Below are positions 3,176 to 32,457 of a DNA stretch of 40,958 bases, in pieces. Position 1 is the first letter of the stretch; each line of letters begins with the position of its first letter. The translations under genes were made by a program, and so were the position numbers. The stretch covers positions 1 to 40,958 of the forward strand of contig JAPLHK010000029.1 in the NCBI GenBank assembly GCA_026389715.1, given 5' to 3'. The notes under the pieces are model-generated. The model worked only from the letters and a program-made list of their open reading frames with translations. It ran no database searches and was not told the DNA's origin. Origin of the DNA: Chloroflexota bacterium (GTDB taxonomy: Bacteria > Chloroflexota > Dehalococcoidia > GIF9 > UBA5629).

Positions 3176-3808
3176 ATGTTTAAGTTCAACTTGATGCCCC
3201 GCGATGATAAGTTCTTTGACCTTTTCGAGGTCAGCGCCAAGAACATGGTAAGGGCAGCCGAAAGCCTCAAGGATATGATCTACAGCTGGGAATGTTTTGA
3301 TGAGAAATTGGAGGAAATGACCAAGATAGAACACCAGGGCGATACCATTACACACGAGATAATGTTCCAGTTGAACCGCTCTTTTATCACTCCTTTTGAC
3401 CGCGAAGATATCGGCCTGCTGGCACACTCCCTGGACGATGTCACAGATCTCATTCAATCGTCGGCCGATACCATGGTTCTTTACAAGGTCAAAACTCCTG
3501 GCAAACGCGCCCGGGAACTGGCAGACATACTTGTCCAGATCACCACGGAAGTTGAGAATGTGATGCCCAGCCTGCGCCGGCACAATTCGAACCTTGAGAA
3601 AATCTTGAATAGTTGCGTGGAGATAAACCGGCTGGAGAACCTGGCCGATACCATTTACCGCACCGCCCTGACGGAACTTTTTGAGGACGATTCGGACATT
3701 GCCGATATCATTAAATGGCGCGAGATTTACGAGCACATGGAGAGCGCGACGGATATGTGCGAGGACGTGGCCAACGTCCTTGAAAGTGTCGCCCTCAAAC
3801 ACGCGTAG
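3176..3808 (+). CDS. DUF47 family protein (PhoU-like, YkaA type)
   Basis: 210-aa all-helical protein with an N-terminus MFKFNLMPRDDKFFDLFE typical of the DUF47 family. No adjacent Pit phosphate transporter. Confidence 0.7.
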   Translation: MFKFNLMPRDDKFFDLFEVSAKNMVRAAESLKDMIYSWECFDEKLEEMTKIEHQGDTITHEIMFQLNRSFITPFDREDIGLLAHSLDDVTDLIQSSADTMVLYKVKTPGKRARELADILVQITTEVENVMPSLRRHNSNLEKILNSCVEINRLENLADTIYRTALTELFEDDSDIADIIKWREIYEHMESATDMCEDVANVLESVALKHA

Positions 3809-6738: not shown

Positions 6739-7198
6739 GATCTATTCCGAAGGTGGCGTTATAGAATCCAGGGCATACGCGGGCGTTTCATGTATCGGCG
6801 AGATGATCGAACCGGTTGTTTCAAACAAAGCCGTTTATGTGGTGCCGGGCCGGGGCGAGAGGCAAATAGGTATGGCCTCCGACGACGAGATGGCCTTTGC
6901 TTTGCCCATGGCAAAATTGCAGGCCCTTCTTGCAGGTCTCGTGGAAACCGATGAAAATGGTACCAGGTATCCTATCCAGCCCTTCCTCTTCTTCGAACCG
7001 CGCTACAATAAGGCCGTCTCCAAACTTATCAAGAAGATAAAGTTAAGCTGAGGATTATACTGCGAACTATATTTATTTTTGCACCCGATCTCAAAGAAAT
7101 GGAACTCTGAGCGCGGCGTCTCGGACATCCATCCGTGACAGCCATTCCGAAGTGTATAAGCCCCTGGTTGAACCTTTAGATTAAAGTAGGAGGATAGC

Positions 7199-8011
7199 AT
7201 GAAATACGAAACACTGATAGTTGAAAAGTCTGGCGATCTGATGACCGTTATATTCAACCGGCCGAAAATCCTCAATGCGCTGGATAGGAAGACGATGCTT
7301 GAGATAAAGGACCTGCTGGACGCGCTGAGGTCAGACCTGCAGACCCGTTTTGTTATCTTCACCGGCGCAGGCAAGGCCTTCTCATCCGGAGTTGAATTCA
7401 GCAGGCAGGCCATGCAGGAGCATTACGACCCTGAACTGCCCAACGAACGGGTGTGGCAGCTCTTCGGCCAGGATTTCATGCGGGCCATGGAGAGCCTGGA
7501 GCAGGTCACTATTGCTGCTGTTAACGGCCCTTCCGTCGGCGCCGGCATGTGCCTGGCCATGAACTGTGACTTCAGGATACTTTCAGAAAAGGCGTTTTTT
7601 AGCATACCTGAAACTGCGCTGGGCATATTCTTTACCTGGGGCGCCACTCCACGATTAACCTGTCTCATCGGGCCGGCCAAAGCCAAGGAAATGATCATAA
7701 CCTGCGACCCCATTGACGCGCAGGAAGCCTGGCGCATAGGGCTGGCCAATAAAGTGGTACCGCACGACCAACTCATGCCGGCCTGTCTTGAACTTGCGCA
7801 GAAAATACGGACCATGGGACCGCTGGCTATACGCATCTGCAAGAAGCAGGTCAACGCCGCCTCGGTGGCAAAAATGGCCGACCTCTACCCGCTGGAGCCG
7901 GAACTGATGGAATTCGTGATGGCCTCCGGTCAGGCCGAGGAAGGCGGGCGCTCTTTCATCGAAAAGCGTAAGCCTGAATTCAAAAGCCAGCAGACAAATT
8001 TCAAACTGTAA
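7199..8011 (+). CDS. Enoyl-CoA hydratase/isomerase (crotonase) family protein
   Basis: Crotonase motifs FTGAGKAFSSGVE and AAVNGPSVGAGMCLAMNCDFRI. RBS GTAGGAGG lies upstream of the ATG. Confidence 0.85.
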   Translation: MKYETLIVEKSGDLMTVIFNRPKILNALDRKTMLEIKDLLDALRSDLQTRFVIFTGAGKAFSSGVEFSRQAMQEHYDPELPNERVWQLFGQDFMRAMESLEQVTIAAVNGPSVGAGMCLAMNCDFRILSEKAFFSIPETALGIFFTWGATPRLTCLIGPAKAKEMIITCDPIDAQEAWRIGLANKVVPHDQLMPACLELAQKIRTMGPLAIRICKKQVNAASVAKMADLYPLEPELMEFVMASGQAEEGGRSFIEKRKPEFKSQQTNFKL

Positions 8012-8690: not shown

Positions 8691-8793
8691 GGTGGCAATA
8701 CTAACATGGAGAGTTTCCTGCATCGCTTATCTGCGCCGTTAAAAACCCCATTACCGTACTATAAAACCCTTGCGGGGATATTACCCCATATTG

Positions 8794-10167
8794 ATGTTAG
8801 ATACTACTAAGTTCGATTCTTCCGAGCGCTGTAATCTCTGCGGTACCTGCCTTTCTTCCTGCCCCGTACTCAACTTAGAACAGGATAGGGCGGTAGCAGA
8901 AAAGCAGCGACTGAACAACGGACAGTCAAGCATGGTGCTGGAGAAGTGCACCACCTGCCTTTCCTGTGATTCATATTGTCCCAATGGCTTCGATCCCTAT
9001 GAGCTGATACTACTGCGCTGGAACGAGCGGTACCAAGAAAAAGGGCTCCCGGCGCTGGCGCATATGGTAATGCCCGGAGACCCGGCCTCCATCTGGAGCC
9101 ACCTCTATCCCCTGATGCCGCCGGATGAGCAGGAGCTAATTAAAAACTGGCGCATAAGGAGCGGGAAGTCCGGCAAGGATATACTGCTGACCGGATGCTT
9201 CAGCGCTTTTTCACCCTATCTCACTATGACGCCTTTGCTGGCCGGCCTAACGCCCTACGGAGACGAGCGCAACTGGTGCAGTGGCGGGCACATCTACCAG
9301 CTCGGGCTGCTCGATGTGGTTGACCAGGTTGGATCAAGATTGCAGGACGTTTTCAATGATCTAAGGCCCAAAAGAGTGGTGACCATGATGGCCGCTGAAT
9401 ATGCCATGCTGGGCAAGATCCTGCCGCAGAGGTTTAATACCAGCTTTGACTTCGAGGTCGTGCCACTGGAGCATTACCTCCTGGATATGCTGCACAACGG
9501 CCAATTGAAGTTAAGCTGCCAGGTTAATAAACGCGTAGCAATACATGATAATTGCTTCTCCAAGGCTGCCGGCGATGCCGTCTGGTCGCCCGTGAGGGAG
9601 CTTGTGCAGGCGTGCGGGGTAAAAATAATAGAGATGCAGCATAACAAGGGCGACGCGCTATGCTGCGGTTTCGGCGCCGCGGCGGGACGCTTCGACCTCT
9701 TTGATCTCATAGCGCAGGGCAAAAAACGGCTCGCAGAAGCCGAGGCTACAGGCGCTGACTGCCTGGTGGTTTACTGCGCTGCCTGCTACTTCATCTTCTC
9801 CGTGGTCAGGGAGCTTGTCGGCAGCAAATTGGAGATCTACCATATCCTGGAACTGCTGGACATGGCCGGAGGCAGGCAGCCGCCGCACCGGACGCGCCGG
9901 CGCGCCTTCAATATCATCGCCATCATGTCCGCCAACATCACACGCATGCTTTTGCAAAGTAAAGCCCGGCAACGATTCAAGATCGACCTGGCGTCTATCC
10001 AGGGCGCTCCCGCGCTGGTAGATTTAGATTTCAAGGCTGACCGCCTGTGCGCATTTTACAACGCCTTCTTGAATAACCCGGCAATACAGAATCCTTTTTC
10101 GCTTTCCATATTGACAACGTTGGTGCGGCTGGCGCTGGCCGGCCGGAGGAGTTTTAACCATGGCTGA
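8794..10167 (+). CDS. HdrD/GlpC-like iron-sulfur protein (2x[4Fe-4S] motifs plus CCG domains), paralog 1
   Basis: CNLCGTCLSSCP and CTTCLSCDSYCP ferredoxin motifs, plus CCG-domain motifs HDNCFSKAAG and ALCCGFGAAAG. ATG is at 8794; the track ORF starts at TTG 8770. Confidence 0.75.
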   Translation: MLDTTKFDSSERCNLCGTCLSSCPVLNLEQDRAVAEKQRLNNGQSSMVLEKCTTCLSCDSYCPNGFDPYELILLRWNERYQEKGLPALAHMVMPGDPASIWSHLYPLMPPDEQELIKNWRIRSGKSGKDILLTGCFSAFSPYLTMTPLLAGLTPYGDERNWCSGGHIYQLGLLDVVDQVGSRLQDVFNDLRPKRVVTMMAAEYAMLGKILPQRFNTSFDFEVVPLEHYLLDMLHNGQLKLSCQVNKRVAIHDNCFSKAAGDAVWSPVRELVQACGVKIIEMQHNKGDALCCGFGAAAGRFDLFDLIAQGKKRLAEAEATGADCLVVYCAACYFIFSVVRELVGSKLEIYHILELLDMAGGRQPPHRTRRRAFNIIAIMSANITRMLLQSKARQRFKIDLASIQGAPALVDLDFKADRLCAFYNAFLNNPAIQNPFSLSILTTLVRLALAGRRSFNHG

Positions 10168-11419
10168 TGTTAAAGAATACAGGTTTCATGATGTGCAGAA
10201 GTGCAAGCTCTGTGGCGACTGCCTCTCGAAGTGCCCTGAGATGTCATTGCCGTTGGAGACCGCCCGCAGGGAGAAGGAGAAAATCAACAGGGGCGAGATG
10301 AGCGACAGTGTTTCCCTATCGTGCACCGCGTGCTTTGACTGCGACGATTTCTGCCCCAATGATGCGGCGCCCTGCGAGACCATCATGGACTATTGGCAGC
10401 GCGAGTACCATACGCGCGGATTGCTGGAAAGGGCGCGCTACTTCCTGCCCATGCAGAAGCTCAATTTCCGCAGCTATATATTAGAGAGACTGCCCGCCGA
10501 CGAGAAGGAAATGGTGGCAAAATGGGACGATAAGTCCCCCTGCTCGGAGTTTATTTACCCGGGTTGCAATGTTACCACGGTGCCTTACCTGACGAAAACC
10601 TCACTGTTGCCGCCCATACCGATAAGGGGTGGCCTGGATTGGTGCTGCAGCGAAACTTTTTTCCGCATGGGCTACTACGATCTTGCCGCGGTACAGGGCA
10701 AAAAGATGCAAGCCAGGTTTGCCGAAATGGGTGCACGTGAGATATTAATGATGTGCACTGCAGGCACGTTCTGCTTCACCAAAATGCTGCCGGAAAGGCT
10801 GGGCATTAAGTTCGATGCCAAATTCAAACCCCTGGTACGATACCTCTGGGAGCAACTGGAAAGCGGCCAGATCAAGGTGGTCAACAAGCTTAAACTGCGC
10901 GCCACGGTACAGGATTCCTGCTATTCCAAGTTCCTCGAGCCTGAATATCTCATGTTGCCGCGCAAAATCCTGGAGCATATAGGAGTGGAGGTAGTTGAAA
11001 TGCCGCGCAGCAAGGAGCGCATGGTCTGTTGCGGCATCGGCGCGGGTTTCAGCATGAGAAGTAACTACAATACTGCTCGCATTACACTCTCCACGCTGAA
11101 GAGGATACATGAGGCCAGGAGAACCGGCGCCGACTTGCTGTGTGTTTACTGCGCCGGTTGCATGCAGATGCTCGGCTCGGGCAGCCTTTTCTATCCCAAC
11201 GCTCCCCAAATCTACCACCTGCTTGAGCTGGTGCAAATGGCTGCCGGCGAGCAGCCCCTGCGGCGTATCGGCAGCCGTGTCAAGACCATGCTGAAATGGA
11301 TTATTAATTTCCGGCTTAGATGTGGCCGTCTCAAACGCGTCCGAAAGGCCGCGCCTTCCCTGCGGGCAAAATGCTGCCGAATACCAGTATTAGTAATTCA
11401 ATACGGCTTTAGCTTCTAA
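10160..11419 (+). CDS. HdrD/GlpC-like iron-sulfur protein, paralog 2
   Basis: CKLCGDCLSKCP and CTACFDCDDFCP motifs, plus QDSCYSKF and MVCCGIGAGFS. Its ATG overlaps the stop of paralog 1 (ATGGCTGA). It is collinear with paralog 1 along the whole length. Confidence 0.75.
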   Translation: MADVKEYRFHDVQKCKLCGDCLSKCPEMSLPLETARREKEKINRGEMSDSVSLSCTACFDCDDFCPNDAAPCETIMDYWQREYHTRGLLERARYFLPMQKLNFRSYILERLPADEKEMVAKWDDKSPCSEFIYPGCNVTTVPYLTKTSLLPPIPIRGGLDWCCSETFFRMGYYDLAAVQGKKMQARFAEMGAREILMMCTAGTFCFTKMLPERLGIKFDAKFKPLVRYLWEQLESGQIKVVNKLKLRATVQDSCYSKFLEPEYLMLPRKILEHIGVEVVEMPRSKERMVCCGIGAGFSMRSNYNTARITLSTLKRIHEARRTGADLLCVYCAGCMQMLGSGSLFYPNAPQIYHLLELVQMAAGEQPLRRIGSRVKTMLKWIINFRLRCGRLKRVRKAAPSLRAKCCRIPVLVIQYGFSF

Positions 11420-11752
11420 AACTTCCTGGACCACTTTCCCGGCCTTAACTAACTGCGCCTTTTCAATCAGCAAATCAGGGGTAATCTTCCGGGATTCGAT
11501 ACACGGAATGCATACGAAAATCTGGCCGCCGAACTCGAGGAAGCTGTCAACCAGCTTCTTGACTGAATCAAAACCCGATGCGTAGATGTGATCGTAGCAC
11601 CCTTTTTTAGCCAGCATAACGCCCATTGATTGCAGTATTACAGTTACTTGAACATCCATTGCCAACACGGCATTGCCAACAACAAAGGGCAATGTGGCCA
11701 TCTCCGGGTCTTCGCCTCCATGAGTTGCGAAAATTACAATTTTCTCTGCCAT
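11390..11752 (-). CDS. DsrE/DsrF-like sulfur-relay family protein
   Basis: 120 aa. Has the N-terminal KIVIFATHGGEDPE...PFVVGNAVLAMD pattern and a Cys pair in VCIPC. It is the last gene of the hdr operon. Confidence 0.7.
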   Translation of the reverse strand: MAEKIVIFATHGGEDPEMATLPFVVGNAVLAMDVQVTVILQSMGVMLAKKGCYDHIYASGFDSVKKLVDSFLEFGGQIFVCIPCIESRKITPDLLIEKAQLVKAGKVVQEVLEAKAVLNY

Positions 11753-11848
11753 AGTCTTCTTGTCTCAACCTCCTTAATGTTTTATTTCTTAACCGTAATT
11801 GTGAAGCTGGTTTTATGGACCCCTGCTATTCCGCACTTGCCCTCATTA

Positions 11849-12814
11849 TTAGTCTATCACACAGTAACCGTTAACCAGATGTTCAGATATGTCTTTGATT
11901 TCAATTGTATCATTTGCCGCACGTCTCAAATTGGCCATGCAGATTGGACACATTGTCACAATGCTGTTGCCACATCCGGCTAACTGGGCCACGCGTTTCT
12001 GAGCGACTTCATGGGCCTTGCCGGGGAATAATGATTCCAGAGGTCCGCCGCAACACTGCGTTAACTTTCCGGATAACTCCGGCAGATGAATTGTTGACCC
12101 GGCAGTTTTCAGCAAACGGCGCGGTTCATCCACTATATTTTCGTGCCTTGCATAAACACAAGAATCGTGGATAACAAGTTCCAAAGGAAGCTGCTTTGCA
12201 CATTTCAGGTCTTTTTCTGCAAGTACTTCCAGGTAGCTCCTGGTAATAAGATCATAGCCATCTATAATTTTCGGGTATACGCTCTTCAACATATTGGTGG
12301 TGTGCGGATCCACGGTGATTACCTGTTTCACACCGTTTTCTTTGAATACCCTGTATACTCTCCTGGCATGCTCCGCAAATACCTGATCAAGTCCCTCATC
12401 ATAAACCAATGCTCCTGAGTACAACTCTTTACCATGCAGATAACCGAAATCTACTCCCGCCATTTTCAGTAGGGCTGCGATGTTGCGTAGTATGCCATTG
12501 TACCTCGCCTGTTCCTTTCCATTGCCCCCGGACATAAACCAGGAAATGTTGACAATCCTGTTCAATATACGGCCTACGCCGAAAAACCTGGTTATACTTG
12601 AATTTTCGAATTTGGCCATCAATTGGGACATGGAATCTATTGCCGGCATTAGCTGGTACATCTGGCCTGTATACAAGACAGTTTCACCTCCAAAGGGTAT
12701 ATCCAAGCCCTTTGCCCAGGCGTCAACTTTTCCCGGACTAAGCGGGACCACATACCTTCTAATTCTCAGGTTGTCTGAGAATACCCCTAAAACATCATGT
12801 ATCGGCAGCGGCAT
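11849..12814 (-). CDS. hdrB: Heterodisulfide reductase subunit B-like (two CCG domains)
   Basis: Motifs HDSCVYARH, LTQCCGGP and MCPICMANL. Begins 3 nt after the hdrC stop. Confidence 0.85.
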   Translation of the reverse strand: MPLPIHDVLGVFSDNLRIRRYVVPLSPGKVDAWAKGLDIPFGGETVLYTGQMYQLMPAIDSMSQLMAKFENSSITRFFGVGRILNRIVNISWFMSGGNGKEQARYNGILRNIAALLKMAGVDFGYLHGKELYSGALVYDEGLDQVFAEHARRVYRVFKENGVKQVITVDPHTTNMLKSVYPKIIDGYDLITRSYLEVLAEKDLKCAKQLPLELVIHDSCVYARHENIVDEPRRLLKTAGSTIHLPELSGKLTQCCGGPLESLFPGKAHEVAQKRVAQLAGCGNSIVTMCPICMANLRRAANDTIEIKDISEHLVNGYCVID

Positions 12815-12817
12815 GAT

Positions 12818-13129
12818 CTATCCTCTTGCAAGCCCAAAAACATCGCGGTTGATATAGCTGCGCAAAGACCTGATATTTTCTGCGATGGGAACATCGGCCG
12901 GACAGTTGTCTTCGCACATTTTGCACAAAAGGCATGAGAATATATTAGTGGTATTTTCCAATACCCTATCCCGTGCTCCAATCAACACATAGCGGAAAAG
13001 AGTCCTTGGGTGCAGGTCGATACCCAGCGGACAAAGCGCCGTGCAGGAACCACAGTTAATACAAGCGGAGGCATTAAATTCGGTGCCGGCCTTCATTCGT
13101 TCAGCAAATTTTGCGTTTGCTTTCAACAT
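12818..13129 (-). CDS. hdrC: Heterodisulfide reductase subunit C-like (2x[4Fe-4S] ferredoxin)
   Basis: CINCGSCTALCP and CLLCKMCEDNCP in a 103-aa protein, positioned immediately upstream of hdrB. Confidence 0.8.
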   Translation of the reverse strand: MLKANAKFAERMKAGTEFNASACINCGSCTALCPLGIDLHPRTLFRYVLIGARDRVLENTTNIFSCLLCKMCEDNCPADVPIAENIRSLRSYINRDVFGLARG

Positions 13130-13165
13130 TATTTTTCCTGATCCCGTAGTTTATACTTATAATAG

Positions 13166-13375
13166 TCATCTGCCCTCCTTGGGCATCTCGATAATCAACC
13201 CGTATCTCCTCATGCCCATCACCCATCTAAGCACTTCATCAGGCGGGTAACCAAGTTCACCGGCAATCTCGGTTATCGTCTTTGGGCCTTCGGCCAGTAT
13301 CTTTATGATCTGACCACGCATATACATCTCGTCGCGAAGCACTTCGCCCAGGTTGCGGGAAACCTTCTTTTCCAT
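13166..13375 (-). CDS. Small (69 aa) winged-helix-like protein of unknown function
   Basis: The segment IIKILAEGPKTITEIAGELGYPPDEVLRWVMGMRRYGLI looks like an HTH plus wing. Its ATG shares one nucleotide with the hdrA stop (TGATG), which argues that it is translated. Confidence 0.55.
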   Translation of the reverse strand: MEKKVSRNLGEVLRDEMYMRGQIIKILAEGPKTITEIAGELGYPPDEVLRWVMGMRRYGLIIEMPKEGR

Positions 13376-15108
13376 CAGGCAACCTCCATAGCCAGAGCGT
13401 CAATCATGGCCTCTACCTGGCTATTTGTGTACCCTTCGACTCCGATGGCCTGCTGGGGACAAACGGGCACGCAGCCGCCCTCGCCTTTGCATAGAACAGG
13501 GTTGATCATAGCGATTTCTTTGCCGTCGCAAGTAATGCGCTGTACTGCGCCGTATGGACATGTTTGCTCGCAAGCGCCACACCATGTGCATAGATCTGGG
13601 TCGACTTTGGCCACGAGCGGCTCCAAATCAATATATCCTTTAAGCAGCAGGGCAGCCACTTTAGCAGACGCAGCCATGGAACTGGCCACGCTCTCAGAAA
13701 GTGTCTTGGGGCCCTGCGCTGCCCCGGCTATAAATAGCCCGTCTATTACGGTCTCGACCGGCTTCAGCTTGGGATGGATTTCATTAAAGAAACCATCCTT
13801 GCCTATGGGCAATTTGAGAACGTTTACCAGGGGGGCATTGGCCCTCGGGACCATGCCGGTAACGAGTACCACGAGGTCAGTTTTTATTTCGATTTCCTCT
13901 CCACCTGTGAGACGGTCTTTCACCTTCACTTTCAACCTGCCGTCTTCAGAAGTTACCTGCGGCGGTTCGTTCTCTTCGTAGCGCAGGAATATCGAACCCT
14001 GCTTTAAGGCCTGATCATAAAGCATCTCATATTTGCCATAGGTGCGCATATCCCGGAAAAGGTGAAACTGATGCACACCGGGGTTCAAATCACCGGTACA
14101 CACGGCCGCATGCACAGCGCCGGTGCAGCAATAGCGGGAGCAATACAGGTGGGGATTATCCTCTTTGCAGTGTTCCCTCGATCCAACACAATATATATAA
14201 GCAACTGTTTTGATATCCCGGCCCTTGTATTTGAAGGAGCCGGAGGATTGGGCAAGCAATTCTTCGTATTCCGGCAGTGTTATCACTCCATCCAGCCGGA
14301 AACCAAATTCACCATCTTTTGGGATATAGGGTTCAAAACCCGTGGCCACTATTATGCCACCGACAGTCAGCGAAATAGTCTCTTTGCTATTGACACTTAT
14401 TTTGACCGAGAACTTACCAACATTGCCGCTTTTTTCGATTATGTTGGCATCGGTAAACAGGTTGATGTTTTCCCGCTCACGGACTTTCTTAATCAATGAA
14501 TCAATTATCTCTGAGCCTTTCTTACCGTTGGGGAACATCTTCCCCCATTTACTTATCATTCCACCCGGCTGTCCCGCCCGTTCAATCATATGCACGGATA
14601 TGCCCATATCAGATAGGGCCAGAGCCGCACGCAATCCAGCAACCCCGGCGCCTATAACTAGCGCAGCAGGCGTAGTTTCGACGCGCAGCCGTTTGAGGGG
14701 CATTGACAATCCAGTGCGAGCAATGCCCGCCCGTACCAGTTTGATTGCTTTGTCCGTCGCTGCATCCTTTGAATGAGTGTGGGCCCATGAACACTGCTCG
14801 CGGATGTTTACCTGGGTATATTGATAGGGATTAAGACCCGCACGCTCAGCCATCGCTCTAAATGTATTCAAGTGAAGTTTGGGCGAACACGAAGCTATGA
14901 CGATCCCGTCCAATTTCTTTTCCTGAATTTCTGCGATCATGTCCTGCTGGGTCGCGTCGGAACACGTAAATATGTTGGTCTTGACCGTGACTACAGAAGG
15001 ATCACCCTCGACTACATCTGCTACCCGTTCCACATTCACATAATCGGAAATATTGCCGCCGCAGTGGCAAATGTATACGCCCAGTTTCCTCCCTGGCATT
15101 TCCATCAT
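13375..15108 (-). CDS. hdrA: Heterodisulfide reductase subunit A-like FAD/Fe-S flavoprotein
   Basis: N-terminal YICHCGGNISDYV, FAD fold VIGAGVAGLRAALAL, and HdrA-typical CSRYCC plus C-terminal ferredoxin motifs CTWCGACEQTCP / CKGEGGCVPVCP. ATGA overlap with the upstream gene. Confidence 0.9.
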   Translation of the reverse strand: MMEMPGRKLGVYICHCGGNISDYVNVERVADVVEGDPSVVTVKTNIFTCSDATQQDMIAEIQEKKLDGIVIASCSPKLHLNTFRAMAERAGLNPYQYTQVNIREQCSWAHTHSKDAATDKAIKLVRAGIARTGLSMPLKRLRVETTPAALVIGAGVAGLRAALALSDMGISVHMIERAGQPGGMISKWGKMFPNGKKGSEIIDSLIKKVRERENINLFTDANIIEKSGNVGKFSVKISVNSKETISLTVGGIIVATGFEPYIPKDGEFGFRLDGVITLPEYEELLAQSSGSFKYKGRDIKTVAYIYCVGSREHCKEDNPHLYCSRYCCTGAVHAAVCTGDLNPGVHQFHLFRDMRTYGKYEMLYDQALKQGSIFLRYEENEPPQVTSEDGRLKVKVKDRLTGGEEIEIKTDLVVLVTGMVPRANAPLVNVLKLPIGKDGFFNEIHPKLKPVETVIDGLFIAGAAQGPKTLSESVASSMAASAKVAALLLKGYIDLEPLVAKVDPDLCTWCGACEQTCPYGAVQRITCDGKEIAMINPVLCKGEGGCVPVCPQQAIGVEGYTNSQVEAMIDALAMEVA

Positions 15109-17834
15109 GACGCTTTCCCCGTTTTCTTTAAATAGGCGGCTACCTGCGCTGCAGCGGCATCGGAATGCAGAATAGAATCGGGTATGTCGCGCGCCCCGGC
15201 CGCCGTTCCGGCAACGAAGACGCCGTCAATACTGGTTTTGCCCGGCTCAAGGTCCTCATCTACCTCATCTATATACGAGAATGGATCTGCCTTGAGAGAC
15301 CCGTCCTTGAAGAGGCACAGGGCGCCCTGCGTGGGAAGCACCCCGACTGACAGTACGACAAGATCGTGCTCGGCCCGCCTGGTGCCTCCATTACCTTCGA
15401 TGTCCTCGTAAAATACTCCCAGGTTCTGGTCAGTTGTTTCTTCTATTCTGGCCACCTTGCCTTTGACGAAATAGACCCCCATACCTTTCGCTTGTTCATA
15501 AAACTCGTCGTAACCCTTGCCGAAAGCGCGGATATCGATGTAGTAAATGGTGATGTCTGCGAGGGGCAGGGCGCCCATCAGCAACTGCGCCTGTTTAAGG
15601 GAATACATGCAACATACACGCGAACATATGCGGTTGTTAACCTTTTGGTCCCTGGAGCCGGTGCACAGTACAAAGGCTATATTGCTGGGTGCTTTTCCAT
15701 CCGAGGGACGGATAACCGCATTATACGGCCGGGTAGGGGCCAGGATACGGTCCATCTGCATGGCATTGATAACATTGGGGAACCTCCCACATCCCAATGC
15801 CGGTTTATTGGCGGCATTGAAGATATCGAACCCCGTTGACAGCATTACCGAACCAACCGTTAGGTCCTCTAGTTCTGTGCGCATATCAAAGGATATGGCA
15901 TCGGCAGGGCATGCAGCCACACATTGCCGGCATTGTGAACAGCCACCGCAGTCCAGACAACGGTTGGCACTATAAAGCGCTTCGTTCTCTGTCATAGTGC
16001 TTTCATATTCGCCGAACGAGCGTGCCCACTCGTTAATGGGCTTAAGCTTCAGGGATACAGGTTTTCTATCAGAAATGTCCCCGGGTGTTCGGCTAAGGAC
16101 AGCCTCCCTGTCGACCATGGGCAATCTTTCATCGAAATGGCATGAATTCATCGGCATACCCTGGAGGTAATGGTCTATATAATAGGCGGCCCTTTTGCCC
16201 TGGCTGATGGCCTTTACAATCATTGAGGGCCCGGTCAGGGCGTCTCCCCCCGCAAAAATCCAGGGTTCCGCAGTCTGCAAAGTTTCTTTATCGGCATTAA
16301 TAGTCCCATTGCGGTTGAGCTCAACCTCAGACGAGAATGGAGAAGTATTAGGAAGAAGGCCGACAGCCATGATAACAATATCGGCGTCGAAGGACTTCCT
16401 TTTAGATTCGTCGAATGAAGGGTTGAATTTGCCGCTGGTGTCGAAAACAGACGTGCAGCAAACGAACTCAGCTCCGGTGGCCTTTCCGCCAACGTCACTG
16501 ACCGCTTTCGGCCCCCACGAACAATTAATCGCAACTCCCTCGTCGACCGCCTGCTGAATCTCCCATTTATGGGCCGGCATTTCATCGTTGGACTCAAGGC
16601 AGACAAGCTGTACTTCATTAGCGCCCAGGCGCAGGGCGCTGCGGCCACAGTCTATAGCAACGTTGCCGCCGCCTATTACCACGACCTTTTTCCCATTCAC
16701 GTCCGGCCGGTCATCAGAATTGCAGGACTTAAGGAAATCCATGCAATCAACAATCCCCTCCAGATCCTCTCCCGGGATGGATATGCGGCGCCCTCCGGTG
16801 TTACCAACGGCCATAAATACGGCATCAAAGCCGTCCTCCTTCATCTTTTGCGTGCTACTGACCCTGGTGCCGGTAACAATCTTGACACCGAGTGCCGTGA
16901 TGTTCTTGATATCGCGAGCCAATATATCCTTGGGCAGGCGGTATGACGGTATGCCCCAGCGCATGATGCCACCAGGCTCAGATTCAGACTCAAAGACTGT
17001 GACAGAATACCCTGACCGGGCCAGGAAATAGGCGGCGGACAGGCCGGCCGGCCCCGACCCGACAACGGCCACCCTCTTGACATTCAATTTTTCAGGAATC
17101 CCATATTCGGGCTCGGGGTGTTCGATGTAGTAACGGTCAACCATGAAGCGTTTGATTGCCCTGATAGGGAGTGGGCCTTCGAGTTGCCCCCTTGTGCACT
17201 CGTCCTCACACGGGGCATAGCATGCCCTGCTCAGGCATCCGGGAAGTGGGGCATCCTCCAGGTGCAATCGGAATGCTTCATCATATTTTCCTGCTCTTAC
17301 CAGTGCGATGTATCCGTGGGGTTTTACTCCCGCGGGACAGGTAAATGAGCACGGCGACGTGCCCTTCCGGTCGATTACCGCCTTCTTGGGGACAGCCTGG
17401 GGGAAGGCAATATAAGCTGCCCTGCGAGCTATCAGATCTGAATTGAATTCATCAGCAATTGCTACGGTACAGGCTGTCTCGCATTGAGCACAGCCGGTAC
17501 ACTTGACTGGATCAATGAACTTTGGATTTTTGCGCAAGTTGACCAAGAAGGTGCCGTCCAAGTTTTTACTGACAGCATCGATTTCGGAGAAGGTCAACAC
17601 CTTGATGTTGGGATGGTTGGCTGTGGCCGCCATTTTAGGTGTGGAGATGCAACTCGAGCAGTCAAGTGTTGGAAATACCTTACTCAGCAGGATCATTTTC
17701 CCGCCTATGCTGGATTCCTTTTCCACCAGCAAAACCCTGAATCCCATGTCGCCCAACGTCAGGGCGGATTCCATCCCCGCTATGCCAGCCCCAACAATCA
17801 GGGCATCATAATCTACGTTTGAGTTTCTTCCCAT
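15105..17834 (-). CDS. hdrL: Large HdrA-like flavoprotein with an inserted GltD-like NAD(P)H-binding oxidoreductase module (HdrL type)
   Basis: HdrA N-terminus (LIVGAGIAGMESAL, PTLDCSSC). Residues ~160-558 resemble the glutamate synthase small subunit (CYAPCEDECTRG, VAVVGSGPAGLSAAYFLA, VVVIGGGNVAIDCG, IFAGGDA). The HdrA core then resumes (CLDCGGCSQCRQCVAACP, CSRVCCMYSLK). Confidence 0.85.
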   Translation of the reverse strand: MGRNSNVDYDALIVGAGIAGMESALTLGDMGFRVLLVEKESSIGGKMILLSKVFPTLDCSSCISTPKMAATANHPNIKVLTFSEIDAVSKNLDGTFLVNLRKNPKFIDPVKCTGCAQCETACTVAIADEFNSDLIARRAAYIAFPQAVPKKAVIDRKGTSPCSFTCPAGVKPHGYIALVRAGKYDEAFRLHLEDAPLPGCLSRACYAPCEDECTRGQLEGPLPIRAIKRFMVDRYYIEHPEPEYGIPEKLNVKRVAVVGSGPAGLSAAYFLARSGYSVTVFESESEPGGIMRWGIPSYRLPKDILARDIKNITALGVKIVTGTRVSSTQKMKEDGFDAVFMAVGNTGGRRISIPGEDLEGIVDCMDFLKSCNSDDRPDVNGKKVVVIGGGNVAIDCGRSALRLGANEVQLVCLESNDEMPAHKWEIQQAVDEGVAINCSWGPKAVSDVGGKATGAEFVCCTSVFDTSGKFNPSFDESKRKSFDADIVIMAVGLLPNTSPFSSEVELNRNGTINADKETLQTAEPWIFAGGDALTGPSMIVKAISQGKRAAYYIDHYLQGMPMNSCHFDERLPMVDREAVLSRTPGDISDRKPVSLKLKPINEWARSFGEYESTMTENEALYSANRCLDCGGCSQCRQCVAACPADAISFDMRTELEDLTVGSVMLSTGFDIFNAANKPALGCGRFPNVINAMQMDRILAPTRPYNAVIRPSDGKAPSNIAFVLCTGSRDQKVNNRICSRVCCMYSLKQAQLLMGALPLADITIYYIDIRAFGKGYDEFYEQAKGMGVYFVKGKVARIEETTDQNLGVFYEDIEGNGGTRRAEHDLVVLSVGVLPTQGALCLFKDGSLKADPFSYIDEVDEDLEPGKTSIDGVFVAGTAAGARDIPDSILHSDAAAAQVAAYLKKTGKAS

Positions 17835-17857
17835 GAAAGTTCAGTATCTCTCTCAAC

Positions 17858-18271
17858 TCATGTTTTGAGTTCGCTGAGCGCTTTATTGAATTTCTCCATA
17901 TGCGACACAAAAGACTCGGAGCAGACCGAACAGATGCCGGCCATCTTTACACGTCTGGGGTCAAGGCCACGTTCCTTAATCAAGTCCTGCGCTTTCTGCA
18001 TCACGGCGGCTGTGCGGTCGGTGCAGTCAGGCAGGTAGGCGCAGTCTGTTCCGTCAGCAGCGACGAACACTCCATCAAAGCCTGCTTCAAGGGCATGCAA
18101 TAACCATCTCGGGTTAATCCCGCTGGAACAGGGCAGTGATATGACCTGTACCGATGTTGGATAATTCATATGTGAACTACCGGCCAGGTCGATACCAGGA
18201 TCGGAGATATTGTTTGTTGAGAAAACCAATATCTTGGGGCCGCCACCGTTAGAGGAATCTGATGAAGTCAC
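17858..18271 (-). CDS. mvhD: MvhD/FlpD-like hydrogenase iron-sulfur subunit (HdrA-docking [2Fe-2S] protein)
   Basis: Motifs ILVFSTNN...LPCSSGINP..LL.ALEAGFDGVFVAADGTDC and the C-terminal Cys pair CSVCSE. GTG start shares 1 nt with the tusA stop. Confidence 0.8.
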   Translation of the reverse strand: MTSSDSSNGGGPKILVFSTNNISDPGIDLAGSSHMNYPTSVQVISLPCSSGINPRWLLHALEAGFDGVFVAADGTDCAYLPDCTDRTAAVMQKAQDLIKERGLDPRRVKMAGICSVCSESFVSHMEKFNKALSELKT

Positions 18272-18525
18272 TATTTGCCCTTTTTAACAAATACTTTCCA
18301 GTAACCCGCTTCCTCAATGGTGCCGAGACACTGGTGCCCAACTTTATTGGCCCAGAGAGGAAGATCTTCCGTTGTGCCAATATCAGAGGACAGCACTTCA
18401 AGTATTCCCCCCATGGGAACAGCTGCCATGCCACGTTTAGCTTCCAGAAGGGGACCCGGGCAAGCAGTACCCCGGGCATCTACAGTTTTGTCCACTTTGA
18501 TATTTTTCAGGTCAATTTCGGTCAT
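18271..18525 (-). CDS. tusA: TusA/SirA-family sulfur carrier protein
   Basis: 84 aa with the conserved CPxP motif in DARGTACPGPLLEAKR. GGAGG RBS is present. Confidence 0.85.
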   Translation of the reverse strand: MTEIDLKNIKVDKTVDARGTACPGPLLEAKRGMAAVPMGGILEVLSSDIGTTEDLPLWANKVGHQCLGTIEEAGYWKVFVKKGK

Positions 18526-18546
18526 GCTATTACCTCCAAAGACGAT

Positions 18547-18882
18547 TTAATTCTGATTACTATCATTAATAAGAGCTCTTTTTTTATCCAGTTCTTCCAC
18601 TATGGCCTGCCTGACAAGCTCACAACATTCGGCGAATATCGGCGTCCCAACTTTGTAGTAGACTGCCTGCCCCTCTCTCCTGGAAACCACTATACCGTGA
18701 GCTTTCATAATGCGCAAATGTTGAGACACGTTCTGTAATTCTATGCCGGTCTGAACGGATATTTCTCCGACAGTTTTCTCTACTTTGCCCAGCACCTTCA
18801 AAATCATCAGGCGTTTGGGATTGGAAAGCGCACTCAGCATCTCTGCCTGTAATTCAAAAATATAGTTGGGATTAATTTCCAT
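18547..18882 (-). CDS. ArsR/SmtB-family transcriptional regulator
   Basis: wHTH segment LSNPKRLMILKVLGKVEKTVGEISVQTGIELQNVSQHLRIMKAHGIVVSRREGQAVYY. ATG 18882 has an AGAGGG RBS. The track ORF starts at TTG 18921. Confidence 0.85.
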   Translation of the reverse strand: MEINPNYIFELQAEMLSALSNPKRLMILKVLGKVEKTVGEISVQTGIELQNVSQHLRIMKAHGIVVSRREGQAVYYKVGTPIFAECCELVRQAIVEELDKKRALINDSNQN

Positions 18883-18922
18883 AATAATCGCCCTCTTAGC
18901 AAAAATACAACATGTAATCAAA

Positions 18923-19453
18923 TTATATAAATAAGGTCATATTGCCTTCGTTAGCCGTTGATACGAATGTAGTCACACCGCCGAATTCAACGCCTGGCAT
19001 AAGTTCTTCCTTTTTAATACCCATGATATCCATGGTCATCGTGCAGATTACTAACCTAACACCCTGCTCACGGGCCTCCTCAATCAATTTGGGTAAACTA
19101 TAGACATTCTTTTTTGCCATCTCTTTCTTCAACATCAGTGTACCCATCCCTCCCATATTCATATTGGACAGCACCAGCTTATTGGGCCCCTTGGGCATCA
19201 TCCAACCGAACATACTCTCCATGAATGTTTTTTTCTCCAGCAATTGGACCTGGCCTTCACGCCTCATAATATTAACTCCCCAAAACGTGAAGAACAGGGT
19301 AACCGGAATATCCATGGCGGCAGCACCGTTGGCAACAATAAAAGCTGATAGCGCTTTATCCAGGTCACCGGAGAATATGAGCATGGTCAAACCCTCAATC
19401 CTCTTTTCCTGGACTGCGGATTGTCTTCCGGCAACAGATGCGCCATCAGCCAT
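18923..19453 (-). CDS. DsrE2/DsrE3-like (DrsE_2 type) sulfurtransferase-family protein
   Basis: FSGDLDKALSAFIVANGAAAMDIPVTLFFTFWG plus a conserved Cys in RLVICTMTMD. First gene of the operon, with RBS AGGAGA. Confidence 0.75.
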   Translation of the reverse strand: MADGASVAGRQSAVQEKRIEGLTMLIFSGDLDKALSAFIVANGAAAMDIPVTLFFTFWGVNIMRREGQVQLLEKKTFMESMFGWMMPKGPNKLVLSNMNMGGMGTLMLKKEMAKKNVYSLPKLIEEAREQGVRLVICTMTMDIMGIKKEELMPGVEFGGVTTFVSTANEGNMTLFI

Positions 19454-19501
19454 TTTAATTAATTCTCCTGTTAATATTAGATTTGCGTGAGTGGATAGTT
19501 A

Positions 19502-19530
19502 TTAATATTCATACTTGCAAATCTTTGCAA
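19502..19530 (-). promoter_or_regulatory. Candidate promoter of the dsrE-arsR-tusA-hdr operon
   Basis: On the minus strand: TTGCAA (19530..19525), a 17-nt spacer, then TATTAA (19507..19502). It lies about 49 nt upstream of ATG 19453. Confidence 0.5.
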
Positions 19531-19534
19531 GTAT
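19511..19534. promoter_or_regulatory. Perfect 11-2-11 inverted repeat, candidate ArsR-type operator
   Basis: Sequence is ATACTTGCAAA-TC-TTTGCAAGTAT. It overlaps the -35 element and spacer of the minus-strand promoter and abuts a plus-strand TATAAT (19532..19537). Confidence 0.6.
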
Positions 19535-19658
19535 AATATATCAATCAAGAATAAGTCAAATTATGGCAGACCCGGTATTACTTGTTGAGATAAGGCCTGG
19601 ACATACGGTTTCAGTGGGATACCAGGAAAGCCTGCAGTTACGGTCTGGGACTGGTGGT

Positions 19659-19688
19659 TTGACAGGTCGAAATGGGCACGACTATAAT
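19659..19688 (+). promoter_or_regulatory. Near-consensus sigma70 promoter of the DUF134-NifX gene
   Basis: TTGACA (19659..19664), an 18-nt spacer, then TATAAT (19683..19688). It lies 44 nt upstream of ATG 19732. Confidence 0.6.
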
Positions 19689-19692
19689 AGTT

Positions 19693-19708
19693 ATGAGCAT
19701 ATGCTCAT
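19693..19708. promoter_or_regulatory. Perfect 16-nt palindrome at the predicted transcription start, candidate operator
   Basis: ATGAGCATATGCTCAT begins 4 nt downstream of the TATAAT. Confidence 0.5.
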
Positions 19709-19731
19709 TATTCAGGCAATGAGAAAATAGA

Positions 19732-20469
19732 ATGCCGAGACCGGTTAAATGCCGCAGGGTAGCAGTTATGCCGGGTATTACCTATTACAAGCCGGCAGGT
19801 ATCCCACTGAGATTTCTTGATGAAGTATGCCTATCTATAGACGAACTCGAGGCATTGCGCCTGAAAGACCTTGAGGATTTAGACCAGGAGCAATGCGCCC
19901 GGCAGATGAACATATCGCGGGCCACCTTTCAACGGGTGCTGGAATCAGCCAGGAAAAAGCTGACGGAAGCCCTTCTCAAGGGAAAAGCCATCAGGATAGC
20001 GGGAGGCGCTTACGAATTAGAGTCCGCGCAACCAGCAATAAATAATCTAAATATACGGAGGAAGAACAATATGAAAATCGCAGTGGTTACAGATGACGAG
20101 ATCACAATCAGTCAACATTTCGGGCGCGCATCATTGTACTTGGTAGTCACCACGCAGGACGGCAAAATAACTGGCAAAGAGAAGAGGCCCAAGATGGGGC
20201 ACAGCCATTTTGCGACTGCTGAAGGAGCCCATTCTGAACACAGCGGCCCTCACGGCTTTGATGCCGCGTCTCAGAATAAACACGCAAGCATGGCAGAGGC
20301 TATTAAGGATTGCCAGGTCCTCATTACGGGCGGTATGGGAAGGGGAGCCTACGAAAGCTTGAAAAGCTATAAGATCGAGCCGGTAATAACCGATATAAAG
20401 AACATCGATGAGGCGATTAAACTTCAATTAGCAGGCAATCTGCCCAATCTGGTGGATAAGCTTCATTAA
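19732..20469 (+). CDS. DUF134 (predicted DNA-binding) fused to a NifB/NifX-type Fe-Mo/Fe-S cluster-binding domain
   Basis: N-terminus MPRPVKCRRV...P.GIP......L..DE.EALRL.DLE.L.QE..A..M.ISR.TF.R.L is the DUF134 signature. The C-terminal half, MKIAVVTDDEITISQHFGRA...ITGGMGRGAY, is NifX/NifB-C-like and carries a His-rich insert. Confidence 0.75.
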   Translation: MPRPVKCRRVAVMPGITYYKPAGIPLRFLDEVCLSIDELEALRLKDLEDLDQEQCARQMNISRATFQRVLESARKKLTEALLKGKAIRIAGGAYELESAQPAINNLNIRRKNNMKIAVVTDDEITISQHFGRASLYLVVTTQDGKITGKEKRPKMGHSHFATAEGAHSEHSGPHGFDAASQNKHASMAEAIKDCQVLITGGMGRGAYESLKSYKIEPVITDIKNIDEAIKLQLAGNLPNLVDKLH

Positions 20470-23627: not shown

Positions 23628-23638
23628 AAAATAACCTG

Positions 23639-32456: not shown

Positions 32457-32457
32457 C

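Follow-up and report, generated by a model that had tools for sequence, protein, structure and literature searches.

What does a complex of the heterodisulfide reductase (Hdr) type act on when its genes stand beside those of the sulfur carriers TusA and DsrE? The question is raised by a locus on contig JAPLHK010000029.1, a 40,958-bp contig of a Chloroflexota metagenome-assembled genome (MAG), which was analysed over its whole length and is called the window below; its closest relatives are Dehalococcoidia MAGs obtained from peat and soil. According to the list of open reading frames (ORFs) and a Pfam scan, ten co-oriented ORFs occupy the minus strand from 19453 to 11390, in the order dsrE2-like, arsR, tusA, mvhD, hdrL, hdrA, a small winged-helix gene, hdrC-like, hdrB-like and dsrE. 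Hdr-type bifurcating complexes are central to anaerobic energy conservation, and their physiological disulfide or sulfur substrates outside methanogens are mostly unknown. Here the genome itself points to the likely substrate carriers, namely TusA and DsrE. The answer proposed, which is given about an even chance as a whole, is that all ten genes belong to a single operon, which encodes a soluble, cytoplasmic iron-sulfur flavoprotein complex together with its dedicated sulfur carriers, and that this complex would be an NADH-dependent reductase of the sulfane sulfur carried by TusA, with DsrE-family proteins as a relay, formation of H2S at the HdrB-like site and electron bifurcation as a possible addition.

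Conservation of the gene cassette

One genome per species (185,579 species) was scanned with conserved peptides of the HdrB-like protein. This survey gave 341 loci, of which the best 80 were taken with 10-kb flanks, and the ten proteins of the window were mapped onto them by tblastn. The cassette unit is present in at least 341 species-level genomes from many phyla and from both domains. Among the 59 loci with at least 6 kb of sequence upstream of hdrB, tusA was found in 57 and mvhD in 56, and the position directly upstream of mvhD was held by tusA in 57. The gene order in the mapped loci was always tusA-mvhD-hdrL-hdrA-wHTH-hdrC-hdrB, where wHTH denotes the small winged-helix gene, detected between hdrA and hdrC in 45 loci. 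A DsrE-family gene stood at an end of the cassette in 49 of the 50 loci with room on both sides (31 upstream, 23 downstream, five both), and arsR accompanied 33 of these 50. Each of the 80 loci, like the window, has a single hdrC and a single hdrB-like gene. When all ORFs in the flanks of the 80 loci were clustered, no further widely conserved neighbour emerged, neither DsrC nor LbpA among them, and the flanks held only lineage-specific regulators and unrelated genes. Since the synteny is kept and no other neighbour is shared, the functional unit is the seven-gene core together with a DsrE-family protein.

It could still be supposed that the sulfur-carrier genes and the hdr genes are adjacent by accident and do not belong to one unit. 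Nothing speaks for this beyond the 96-nucleotide (nt) gap before the last gene, whereas the order is kept in 57 of 59 loci of distant phyla and of both domains, and start and stop codons overlap. Chance adjacency, the probability of which is considered negligible, is ruled out by the synteny across unrelated genomes. The neighbourhood of tusA and dsrE with the hdr genes had been set beforehand as a check on the hybrid operon proposed in an initial annotation of the sequence, and it held in about ten phyla.

The bacterial carriers include members of Dehalococcoidia, Anaerolineae, Zixibacteria, Ignavibacteria, Kiritimatiellales, Lentisphaerae, Verrucomicrobiota, Calditrichota, Spirochaetia and Bacillota. 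Further carriers are MAGs of Rhodocyclaceae, Rhodoferax and Thiobacillaceae (Betaproteobacteria) and many Thermoplasmata archaea. At least two are cultured, Pontiella sulfatireligans F21, which has the complete set arsR-dsrE2-tusA-mvhD-hdrL-hdrA-wHTH-hdrC-hdrB (locus L039), and Desulfotruncus alcoholivorax DSM 16058 (Bacillota), and these two make the hypothesis directly testable. In metagenomes, the HdrB-like family comprises 1,712 to 1,975 clusters at 90% identity with stringent E-values, and 186 clusters at 50% identity at E <= 1e-30.

Organisation of the operon and the small winged-helix gene

The ten minus-strand ORFs with short gaps and overlaps, which the initial annotation had reported, were all recovered in the order and at the positions it gave. 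The tusA and mvhD genes overlap by 1 nt, hdrL and hdrA by 4 nt, and hdrA and the winged-helix gene by 1 nt. The gaps amount to 40 nt between dsrE2 and arsR (counted to the arsR ATG at 18882), 21 nt between arsR and tusA, 23 nt between mvhD and hdrL, and 3 nt between hdrC and hdrB; the largest is that between hdrB and dsrE. Terminator-like sites on the minus strand fall inside coding sequence, none of them being intergenic, and their number equals the shuffled expectation. The same is true of the counts from the promoter scan, so that these scans alone constitute no evidence; of the regulatory signals, it is the conserved palindrome described below that does.

The winged-helix gene had been described as a 69-amino-acid (aa) ORF. 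It is indeed present on the minus strand (13166-13375), but the length did not stand, as the ORF is a truncated form of an 82-aa gene that occupies 13129-13375 when intact. Two nucleotides (CC) are missing between 13177 and 13176 and account for the truncation: the sequence of the window is AAGG--AGGG(CA) at this point, and an otherwise identical independent assembly (L001, SRR20698650) reads AAGGCCAGGG, or AAGGCCAGGGCA over a longer stretch. The orthologues are 81-84 aa long. The restored frame has 82 aa and ends in TAATG, which overlaps the hdrC start at 13129; with this frame, the central five genes would all be translationally coupled or nearly so. The deletion is either an assembly or polishing error of the MAG or a real strain-level frameshift. 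The encoded protein contains no cysteines and matches Pfam families below threshold only, none being reached above it. Its AlphaFold model (predicted local distance difference test, pLDDT, 84) consists of three helices and two strands, a minimal winged helix, for which SmtB/CzrA/MarR-type repressors are the best structural matches. A DsrD-like identity was considered and rejected, as Pfam gave no DsrD match and none appeared among the 50 best structural matches, the likeness being of a generic ArsR/MarR kind. The fixed position of the gene and its overlapping start and stop codons suggest that the protein is a stoichiometric subunit or a tightly co-expressed regulator.

HdrA and HdrL as a complementary pair

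The hdrA gene (13375-15108, minus strand) encodes a 577-aa protein of the methanogen type, which matches methanogen HdrA (5odc_A) at 7e-106 and sHdrA, the HdrA of the sHdr system (6tjr_A), only at 5e-34. The assignment of the Hdr module to the MvhD/methanogen rather than the sHdr kind was thereby supported. The protein consists of an N-terminal iron-sulfur domain, a thioredoxin-reductase-like FAD domain and a C-terminal ferredoxin domain with two [4Fe-4S] clusters. It lacks the inserted ferredoxin domain, as residues ~237-313 of 5odc remain unmatched, and it lacks the equivalent of Cys197: the segment FPNGKKGSE aligns to FPTNDCSIC of 5odc, and a cysteine occurs at this site in none of 60 orthologues. 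Cys14, Cys16, Cys49 and Cys74 are invariant. The hdrL gene (15105-17834, minus strand) encodes a 909-aa HdrA-like protein with Fer4_20 and Pyr_redox_2 domains of the NfnB/GltD-like kind. Its ends match the HdrA core (5odc_A and 9sfi_A over residues 628-904), and residues ~159-639 match NfnB-like chains, namely 9bov (2e-93), NfnB 4ylf_B (2e-69), StnC 8oh5_C and 9n5u. This NfnB/GltD-like module, with sites for FAD, NAD(P)H and two [4Fe-4S] clusters, is nested within the inserted ferredoxin domain, with one of that domain's two cluster motifs on either side. HdrL has neither the N-terminal iron-sulfur domain nor the C-terminal ferredoxin domain, and its motif FPTLDC(A/S)SC is retained by all 53 orthologues examined. 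The annotation of the gene as a giant HdrA of the HdrL type is supported by the pyridine-nucleotide module at residues 159-638. A few loci (L013, L030, L056 and L032) deviate in hdrL, which is either split or recognised solely by its C-terminal third, and two of them lack tusA and mvhD. They come from Candidatus Electryonea, Candidatus Hatepunaea, an uncultured bacterium and Calditrichaeota, the last with an insertion of ~1.5 kb in hdrL. These loci may represent insertions, misassemblies or a variant without the NfnB module.

The set of features found in methanogen HdrA is split here between HdrA and HdrL, and no single protein carries it. In the methanogen enzyme, the N-terminal cluster of one HdrA is completed by Cys197 from its HdrA partner, and in anaerobic methanotrophic (ANME) archaea heterodimers have been proposed for tandem HdrA genes whose N-terminal domain and Cys197 complement each other (PMC9012536). 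Insertion of an NfnB module into the inserted ferredoxin domain has also been reported, for HdrA9-11 of ANME-1 (PMC9012536). The pattern by which such complementary pairs were recognised (PMC9012536) is found here at the sequence level, with the site cysteine in 0 of 60 HdrA and in 53 of 53 HdrL sequences. Because the N-terminal domain and the Cys197-type cysteine are complementary, an obligate HdrA-HdrL heterodimer is predicted, with MvhD, HdrC and the HdrB-like protein as further subunits, one copy of each.

The pyridine-nucleotide module also allows a prediction of the donor. The YRR motif of NfnB and DsrL binds the 2'-phosphate of NADPH, and enzymes without YRR use NADH (PMC7596348). At the YRR position, residues 412-414 of the window HdrL (~16593-16601) read CLE. 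The form C(L/V)E occurs in 26 loci, among them the close Dehalococcoidia relatives, most Thermoplasmata and Pontiella, and YRR in another 26, among them Ignavibacteria, Zixibacteria, Betaproteobacteria and D. alcoholivorax. CLE itself was counted in 24 orthologues, against 26 with YRR. This split partly tracks taxonomy, and one Spirochaetia locus (L065) has two hdrL genes, one with YRR and one with SLE. Because CLE replaces the NADPH-specifying YRR, HdrL of the window is predicted to use NADH. The NAD(P)H link put forward earlier is therefore upheld by the module and narrowed to a predicted NADH link.

The remaining electron-transfer subunits are conserved in their ligands. MvhD (17858-18271, minus strand; 137 aa; Pfam FlpD/MvhD, 8e-30), the iron-sulfur electron-transfer subunit, has five invariant cysteines (48, 77, 83, 114 and 117). 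The HdrC-like protein (12818-13129, minus strand; 103 aa; Pfam Fer4_17/Fer4_8; two [4Fe-4S] clusters) has eight conserved cysteines, seven of which occur in all of 51 sequences and the eighth, Cys69, in 98%. Its match to the NCBIfam HdrC model is weak (47.7 against a cut-off of 160 bits).

The HdrB-like subunit

The hdrB-like gene (11849-12814, minus strand) encodes a 321-aa protein in which the Pfam CCG domain covers residues 214-297 only. The single CCG motif (Cys219, 254, 255, 289 and 292) is kept in 64 of 64 sequences. The N-terminal half-repeat is degenerate and has no conserved cysteine; the equivalent of MCPIC/CPxC is VDPHTT, which is invariant in alignment A1. No HdrB in the PDB was matched by sequence, the sole match being the CCG module of Mycobacterium smegmatis EtfD, and the NCBIfam HdrB model was not reached, with weak matches to TfrB- and LdhH-type models only. 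More generally, no Hdr, TusA or DsrE protein of the cassette reaches an NCBIfam equivalog cut-off. With the AlphaFold model (pLDDT 81; predicted template-modelling score, pTM, 0.86), Foldseek returned EtfD 9ojn first (template-modelling score, TM, 0.69), then LutA, and then HdrB 5odc_B (TM ~0.53). The label HdrB given by the initial annotation therefore needs changing, the protein being divergent, with one CCG motif instead of two and no sequence match to HdrB in the PDB. Cys318 near the C-terminus, a catalytic candidate that was invariant in 11 sequences, was discarded, since it is present in 55% of 64.

Two tandem HdrD-like genes on the plus strand (8770-10167 and 10160-11419) overlap each other, each with an N-terminal 4Fe-4S region and one CCG domain. 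Both run towards the operon, and because the second shares 30 nt with the 3' end of dsrE, there is no room for a terminator. The pair was rejected as part of the system, since the two are 32% identical paralogues, only remotely like the HdrB-like protein, and not conserved beside the cassette.

DsrK has a single non-cubane-type site and acts on a protein-bound sulfur substrate. By analogy, the single site of the HdrB-like protein may represent a DsrK-like situation. The fact that DsrK also has a single CCG site can be taken to favour a different substrate, namely a protein disulfide or trisulfide (a mixed disulfide of TusA and DsrE, or a DsrC-like trisulfide following the DsrK/DsrC logic) or the disulfide of a low-molecular-weight thiol, the complex being mainly a bifurcating redox hub. 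The CxPC pair of DsrE could cycle between dithiol and disulfide. Moreover, in Syntrophobacter fumaroxidans HdrABC/HdrL reaches high abundance only with sulfate, with DsrC as the proposed partner (PMC5947623), and Desulfobacterium autotrophicum has a tandem hdrL/hdrA-hdrCB locus (PMC2702500). However, dsrC is found neither in the window nor as a conserved neighbour, P. sulfatireligans has no genes of the Dsr pathway according to its describers (PMC7356697), and the Desulfobacterota loci have an FdhB-like subunit that is absent here. A disulfide or trisulfide substrate is thus considered improbable, if worth keeping in mind. It overlaps with the proposed reduction of TusA-carried sulfur, since a carrier-bound trisulfide is protein-bound sulfane sulfur as well.

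Sulfur carriers and reaction direction

TusA (18271-18525, minus strand; 84 aa) is recognised by Pfam at 1.9e-20, with 72.9 bits against a cut-off of 28.6. The CPGP motif with the active-site Cys22 is present in 58 of 59 orthologous matches, and Cys22 itself is 97% conserved; the score lies below the NCBIfam equivalog of E. coli TusA (39.6 against 78 bits). The DsrE2-like protein (18923-19453, minus strand; 176 aa; Pfam DrsE_2, 3.5e-57) is best matched in the PDB by 3pnx, a 'putative sulfurtransferase DsrE' (3e-31), and then by 2qs7, and is of the soluble, DsrE2B-like type. Its Cys137 is invariant in 31 sequences, and it remains under the cut-off of the NCBIfam DsrE2 equivalog NF047629 (89.1 against 210 bits). 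The small DsrE (11390-11752, minus strand; 120 aa; Pfam DsrE, 1.4e-13), whose gene follows hdrB in 23 of 50 loci, has the CxPC pair with Cys81 conserved in 100% and Cys84 in 96%. It distantly matches the structure of DsrE3A (3mc3, 8.5e-5), the cysteine of which aligns with Cys81.

The last match bears on the form in which the sulfur is held. If the carriers held a thiosulfonate (Cys-S-SO3-), the complex would reductively cleave carrier-bound sulfur derived from thiosulfate or tetrathionate. DsrE3A and TusA of Metallosphaera cuprina carry thiosulfonate (PMC4175335; PMC11094781), and DsrE3A provides the structure most similar to the 120-aa DsrE. This similarity is weak, however, and Pontiella strains did not reduce thiosulfate (PMC7356697) though strain F21 has the cassette. 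A thiosulfonate-cleaving function is thus regarded as quite unlikely.

The carriers also raise the possibility that the system runs in the oxidative, sHdr-like direction, with the sulfane sulfur of TusA/DsrE being oxidised and the electrons passed to NAD+ (and ferredoxin). The association of TusA with DsrE-family proteins is a hallmark of shdr clusters (PMC11094781), some of the carriers come from lineages that include sulfur oxidisers (the Thiobacillaceae, Rhodocyclaceae and Rhodoferax MAGs), and the small gene between hdrA and hdrC sits at the 'hyp' position of hdrC1B1A-hyp-hdrC2B2. Against this, the window contains no lbpA and the 80 loci no further conserved neighbour, there is one HdrCB pair and not two, and HdrA is of the long, methanogen type, as its much stronger match to 5odc_A than to 6tjr_A indicates. 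Most carriers belong to lineages known mainly as anaerobes or fermenters. Furthermore, the conversion of sulfane sulfur to sulfite requires oxygen atoms and six-electron chemistry, neither of which the cassette provides. Membership of the sHdr group was rejected because LbpA is absent, the HdrCB pair is single and HdrA is long, and an oxidative function is considered unlikely.

Regulation and the upstream region

The arsR gene (18547-18882, minus strand; Pfam HTH_20/HTH_5) was listed as an ORF of 124 aa extending to a TTG at 18921. This start is probably an over-extension, as the orthologues begin at Met14, which corresponds to the ATG at 18882. The protein belongs to the ArsR/SmtB family (NCBIfam HTH_metalloreg, 75.8 bits against a cut-off of 55), and its C-terminal Cys100 is 96% conserved. 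It does not qualify as a two-Cys persulfide sensor of the BigR/SqrR/sHdrR type, which has one conserved cysteine in helix 2 and another in helix 5: the first is replaced by leucine, and the BigR model gave 44.7 against 155 bits. Upstream of dsrE2, the minus strand carries the promoter-like sequence TTGACT-18 nt-TATACT (19530-19559), which agrees with the consensus in 10 of 12 positions in a region not enriched over shuffles, and an AGGAG ribosome-binding site precedes the dsrE2 ATG at 19453. The -10 element is overlapped by a perfect 11-2-11 inverted repeat at 19511-19534, ATACTTGCAAA-TC-TTTGCAAGTAT, that is, ATACTTGCA-N6-TGCAAGTAT, and no other mismatch-free copy of its half-site occurs in the window. 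The core TTGCA-N6-TGCAA was found in 10 of 81 loci, each time ~100-150 bp upstream of dsrE2, and nowhere else in ~1.2 Mb; two of these loci are from Dehalococcoidia and eight from Thermoplasmata. This distribution is good evidence that the palindrome is a conserved operator, for which the ArsR encoded in the operon is the simplest candidate. Because its core is common to Dehalococcoidia and Thermoplasmata, it also indicates that the cassette was transferred between the domains together with its control region.

Other lineages have other regulators. A CsoR/RcnR-family regulator lies beside the cassette in D. alcoholivorax (L064:3648-4028, minus strand, where a SulP/STAS permease adjoins it) and in a Chloroflexia MAG (L014:12871-13164, plus strand), and PAS-sigma-54 activators do so in Ignavibacteria, Zixibacteria and Rhodocyclaceae (L025:2172-3536 and L067:1830-3191, both on the minus strand). 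The CsoR family includes the persulfide sensor CstR, and its presence beside the cassette in D. alcoholivorax speaks for the proposed sulfur-linked function. The claim that the operon is under ArsR control is thus supported for this lineage by the conserved palindrome on the promoter, and does not hold in general, ArsR being found in 33 of 50 loci and CsoR or sigma-54 regulators in others.

Divergent from the operon lies a gene for DUF134 fused to a NifX/NifB-type FeMo-cofactor-binding domain (19732-20469, plus strand). Upstream of it (19659-19760) there is a promoter-like TTGACA-18-TATAAT, with 12 of 12 consensus positions, and an 8+8 palindrome, ATGAGCAT/ATGCTCAT, at 19693-19708. In the closest relatives (L002-L004), a DUF134 gene and a similar ATATGCTCAT palindrome are also found upstream of the cassette.

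Control by ArsR or CsoR repressors is typical of stress and detoxification operons, and this favours a biosynthetic or maintenance role in sulfur or selenium trafficking, such as the supply of sulfide for cofactors and iron-sulfur clusters or the detoxification of reactive sulfur, with no role in energy metabolism. TusA also gives weak scores with the models for YedF (selenium metabolism) and YeeD, and a part in the detoxification of reactive sulfur species has been proposed for DsrE4-type proteins (PMC11094781). On the other hand, six subunits with two HdrA-type flavoproteins, three FAD-binding domains and MvhD would be a costly way of making biosynthetic sulfide, and they bear the hallmarks of energy-coupling Hdr enzymes. 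The selenium genes selD and yedE were found neither among the window ORFs nor in the clustering of the 80 loci. A trafficking role is therefore held to be improbable.

The proposed reductase and its weight

The sequences themselves show the gene content, the kept synteny, the conserved catalytic cysteines, the complementary domains of HdrA and HdrL, the difference between YRR and CLE and the conserved operator-like site. The association of the genes suggests the formation of a complex, the identity of its substrate, the reductive direction and any bifurcation. In the proposed mechanism, transcription would start from the promoter upstream of dsrE2, the overlapping palindromic operator of which is presumably bound by the operon's own ArsR-family repressor. 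HdrA and HdrL would form an asymmetric heterodimer, in which the HdrL cysteine completes an iron-sulfur cluster of the N-terminal domain of HdrA. The pyridine nucleotide would be bound by the NfnB-like module of HdrL, with NADH as the donor here and NADPH in other lineages. The electrons would then pass through the iron-sulfur chain and the HdrA-type flavins to HdrC and from there to the single non-cubane-type [4Fe-4S] cluster of the HdrB-like protein, where the persulfide or polysulfide of TusA would be reduced to sulfide and the carrier thiol regenerated. The DsrE2-like protein and DsrE would load or relay the sulfur. MvhD, along with HdrA's C-terminal ferredoxin domain, may serve as a second port for entry or exit of electrons, which makes bifurcation or confurcation coupled to ferredoxin possible. 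The physiology of a cultured carrier is consistent with such a reductase. Reduction of elemental sulfur, though not of thiosulfate, accompanies sugar fermentation in Pontiella desulfatans, P. sulfatireligans and Kiritimatiella glycovorans (PMC7356697). Their describers found no genes for a polysulfide reductase, another molybdoenzyme or Dsr proteins and called the mechanism unclear (PMC7356697). The reduction of sulfur by P. sulfatireligans F21, the strain among these for which the cassette is established, fits the function proposed here.

Several points weigh against this interpretation. Both by sequence and by fold, the HdrB-like protein is nearer to CCG proteins of the EtfD, TfrB and LutA types than to HdrB. 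These serve electron transfer from the electron-transferring flavoprotein (ETF), fumarate reduction and lactate utilisation and do not act on the CoM-CoB heterodisulfide, and by analogy with them disulfide or persulfide chemistry is not guaranteed. Position 29 of ArsR is a leucine, so that the first cysteine of the two-Cys persulfide-sensor pattern is absent; a cysteine occurs there in 52% of the orthologues. Neither a sulfur importer (YedE/YeeE) nor a rhodanese emerged as a conserved neighbour from the clustering of the 80 loci. No Rosetta-stone fusion joining TusA or DsrE to an Hdr subunit turned up, the long members of the HdrB-like family showing HdrC-like or TfrB-like fusions only. The literature yielded no biochemical, genetic or expression evidence for the cassette. 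Finally, at a standard potential of about -270 mV, S0 or polysulfide/HS- is too low a couple to let NADH drive bifurcation to ferredoxin, except where sulfide is kept low.

A more far-reaching version is put forward tentatively, as a proposal more apt to fail than to hold: that the cassette encodes an unrecognised class of cytoplasmic, flavin-based bifurcating or confurcating sulfane-sulfur reductase acting on persulfurated TusA, that this class would underlie the reduction of elemental sulfur and polysulfide by fermenters independently of molybdoenzymes and Dsr proteins, and that the cassette and its operator moved between Bacteria and Archaea. The candidate groups for TusA-linked reduction of elemental sulfur would then include Kiritimatiellia, Dehalococcoidia, Ignavibacteria, Zixibacteria and Thermoplasmata. 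Even without this extension, if the proposed reductase function is right, it would explain how fermenters devoid of all known sulfur reductases reduce sulfur, a gap stated for Pontiella and Kiritimatiella. The genes would also provide a marker set by which cryptic sulfur cycling could be traced in sediments, soils and peat, and the CLE and YRR forms a natural pair of NADH-type and NADPH-type enzymes for the study of bifurcation.

Other genes of the window

The Pfam scan of all substantial ORFs of the window detected no lbpA, dsrC, hydrogenase or flxABCD, in agreement with the absence of these genes reported by the initial annotation. The other substantial ORFs have unrelated functions, among them an FGGY kinase, an amidase, cation efflux, an enoyl-CoA hydratase, an acyl-CoA synthetase and transporters. 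A haem/siroheme cluster on the plus strand (31251-40223) comprises two radical-SAM proteins, precorrin-2 dehydrogenase, HemA, HemC, a fused CobA-HemD and HemB. One of its radical-SAM proteins is fused to NirD/L-like AsnC domains, which suggests the siroheme-dependent alternative haem pathway, and a HemL-like aminotransferase of 115 aa (39876-40223) is apparently truncated. On the minus strand, 22434-25251 contains LarC-like (nickel insertion), LarE-like (NAD synthase-like) and LarB-like (AIR carboxylase-like) genes, a set for the nickel-pincer cofactor. At 5464-7199, a 424-aa minus-strand ORF without a Pfam match overlaps plus-strand ORFs with partial DUF169 matches at ~59% GC, and the coding strand is ambiguous. 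Mirror-image ORFs of 210 aa occur on both strands at 3170-3808, of which only the one on the plus strand matches a family (PhoU_div/DUF47).

Comparison with known systems

The cassette does not share the defining features of the sHdr, Mvh-Hdr or Flx-Hdr systems. It was set beforehand that the gene order should not already be characterised. A search of the literature open without subscription gave only unrelated co-mentions of tusA or dsrE with mvhD, hdrL or hdrA; it found no paper that describes TusA/DsrE linked to methanogen-type HdrA/HdrL/MvhD with a single-CCG subunit and a winged-helix gene, and no functional study of such a locus.

With MvhAGD-HdrABC (5ODC), the cassette shares MvhD and an HdrC-like subunit, and its HdrB-like protein has the HdrB fold at TM ~0.53. 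The [NiFe] hydrogenase MvhAG is neither present in the window nor conserved in the loci, two HdrA paralogues replace the HdrA homodimer, and HdrA itself lacks the inserted ferredoxin domain and Cys197. The HdrB-like protein has one CCG motif, whereas HdrB of that complex has two, with two non-cubane [4Fe-4S] clusters, and sequence similarity to HdrB is not detectable. In place of a context of coenzymes M and B (CoM and CoB), there are dedicated TusA and DsrE carriers. The sHdr-LbpA system resembles the cassette in that its Hdr-like genes are linked to TusA and DsrE-family transferases, often to an ArsR-type regulator, and include a small gene between hdrA and hdrC. It differs in LbpA and in the second HdrCB pair of hdrC1B1A-hyp-hdrC2B2, both of which are missing here, and in the short sHdrA (~350 aa, without the N-terminal and ferredoxin domains), as opposed to 577 aa. 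The cassette adds MvhD and the NfnB-fused HdrL, its predicted direction is reductive, and its carriers mostly belong to groups regarded as anaerobes. The initial description of the locus as the sulfur-carrier half of sHdr joined to an MvhD/NAD(P)H half thus remains valid for the TusA/DsrE linkage, MvhD and the HdrL module, and needs changing for the HdrB part.

The closest relatives by architecture are the HdrL and tandem HdrA loci. HdrL was named in D. autotrophicum, one locus of which (VIII) combines tandem hdrL/hdrA with hdrCB (PMC2702500), and HdrABC/HdrL of S. fumaroxidans (Sfum_0819-0824) is produced only with sulfate (PMC5947623). These loci, together with HdrA9-11 of ANME-1 and HdrA5/6, share with the cassette the NfnB insertion, the arrangement of mvhD, tandem hdrL/hdrA and hdrCB, and the complementarity of N-terminal domain and Cys197. 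Unlike the cassette, they carry an FdhB-like iron-sulfur subunit or formate dehydrogenase genes, and DsrC or CoM-S-S-CoB has been proposed as the partner. None has been reported with TusA, DsrE or a small winged-helix gene, and none has been characterised biochemically. FlxABCD-HdrABC, the NADH-dependent and DsrC-linked complex found in sulfate reducers, likewise combines pyridine-nucleotide input, an MvhD-like connector and HdrABC with a protein-bound sulfur or disulfide acceptor. Here, in contrast, flxABCD is absent, the NAD(P)H module is fused into HdrL, and TusA and DsrE stand where that system has DsrC. The YTD cluster of sulfur disproportionators (yedE-tusA-dsrE with conserved hypothetical genes) also provides TusA and a DsrE-family set in anaerobes that handle zero-valent sulfur; it has no Hdr module, whereas the cassette has neither the YedE permease nor the YTD hypotheticals. 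The parts of the cassette are of known kinds, and the combination of TusA/DsrE with HdrA/HdrL/MvhD and a single-CCG subunit is, as far as the literature search shows, new.

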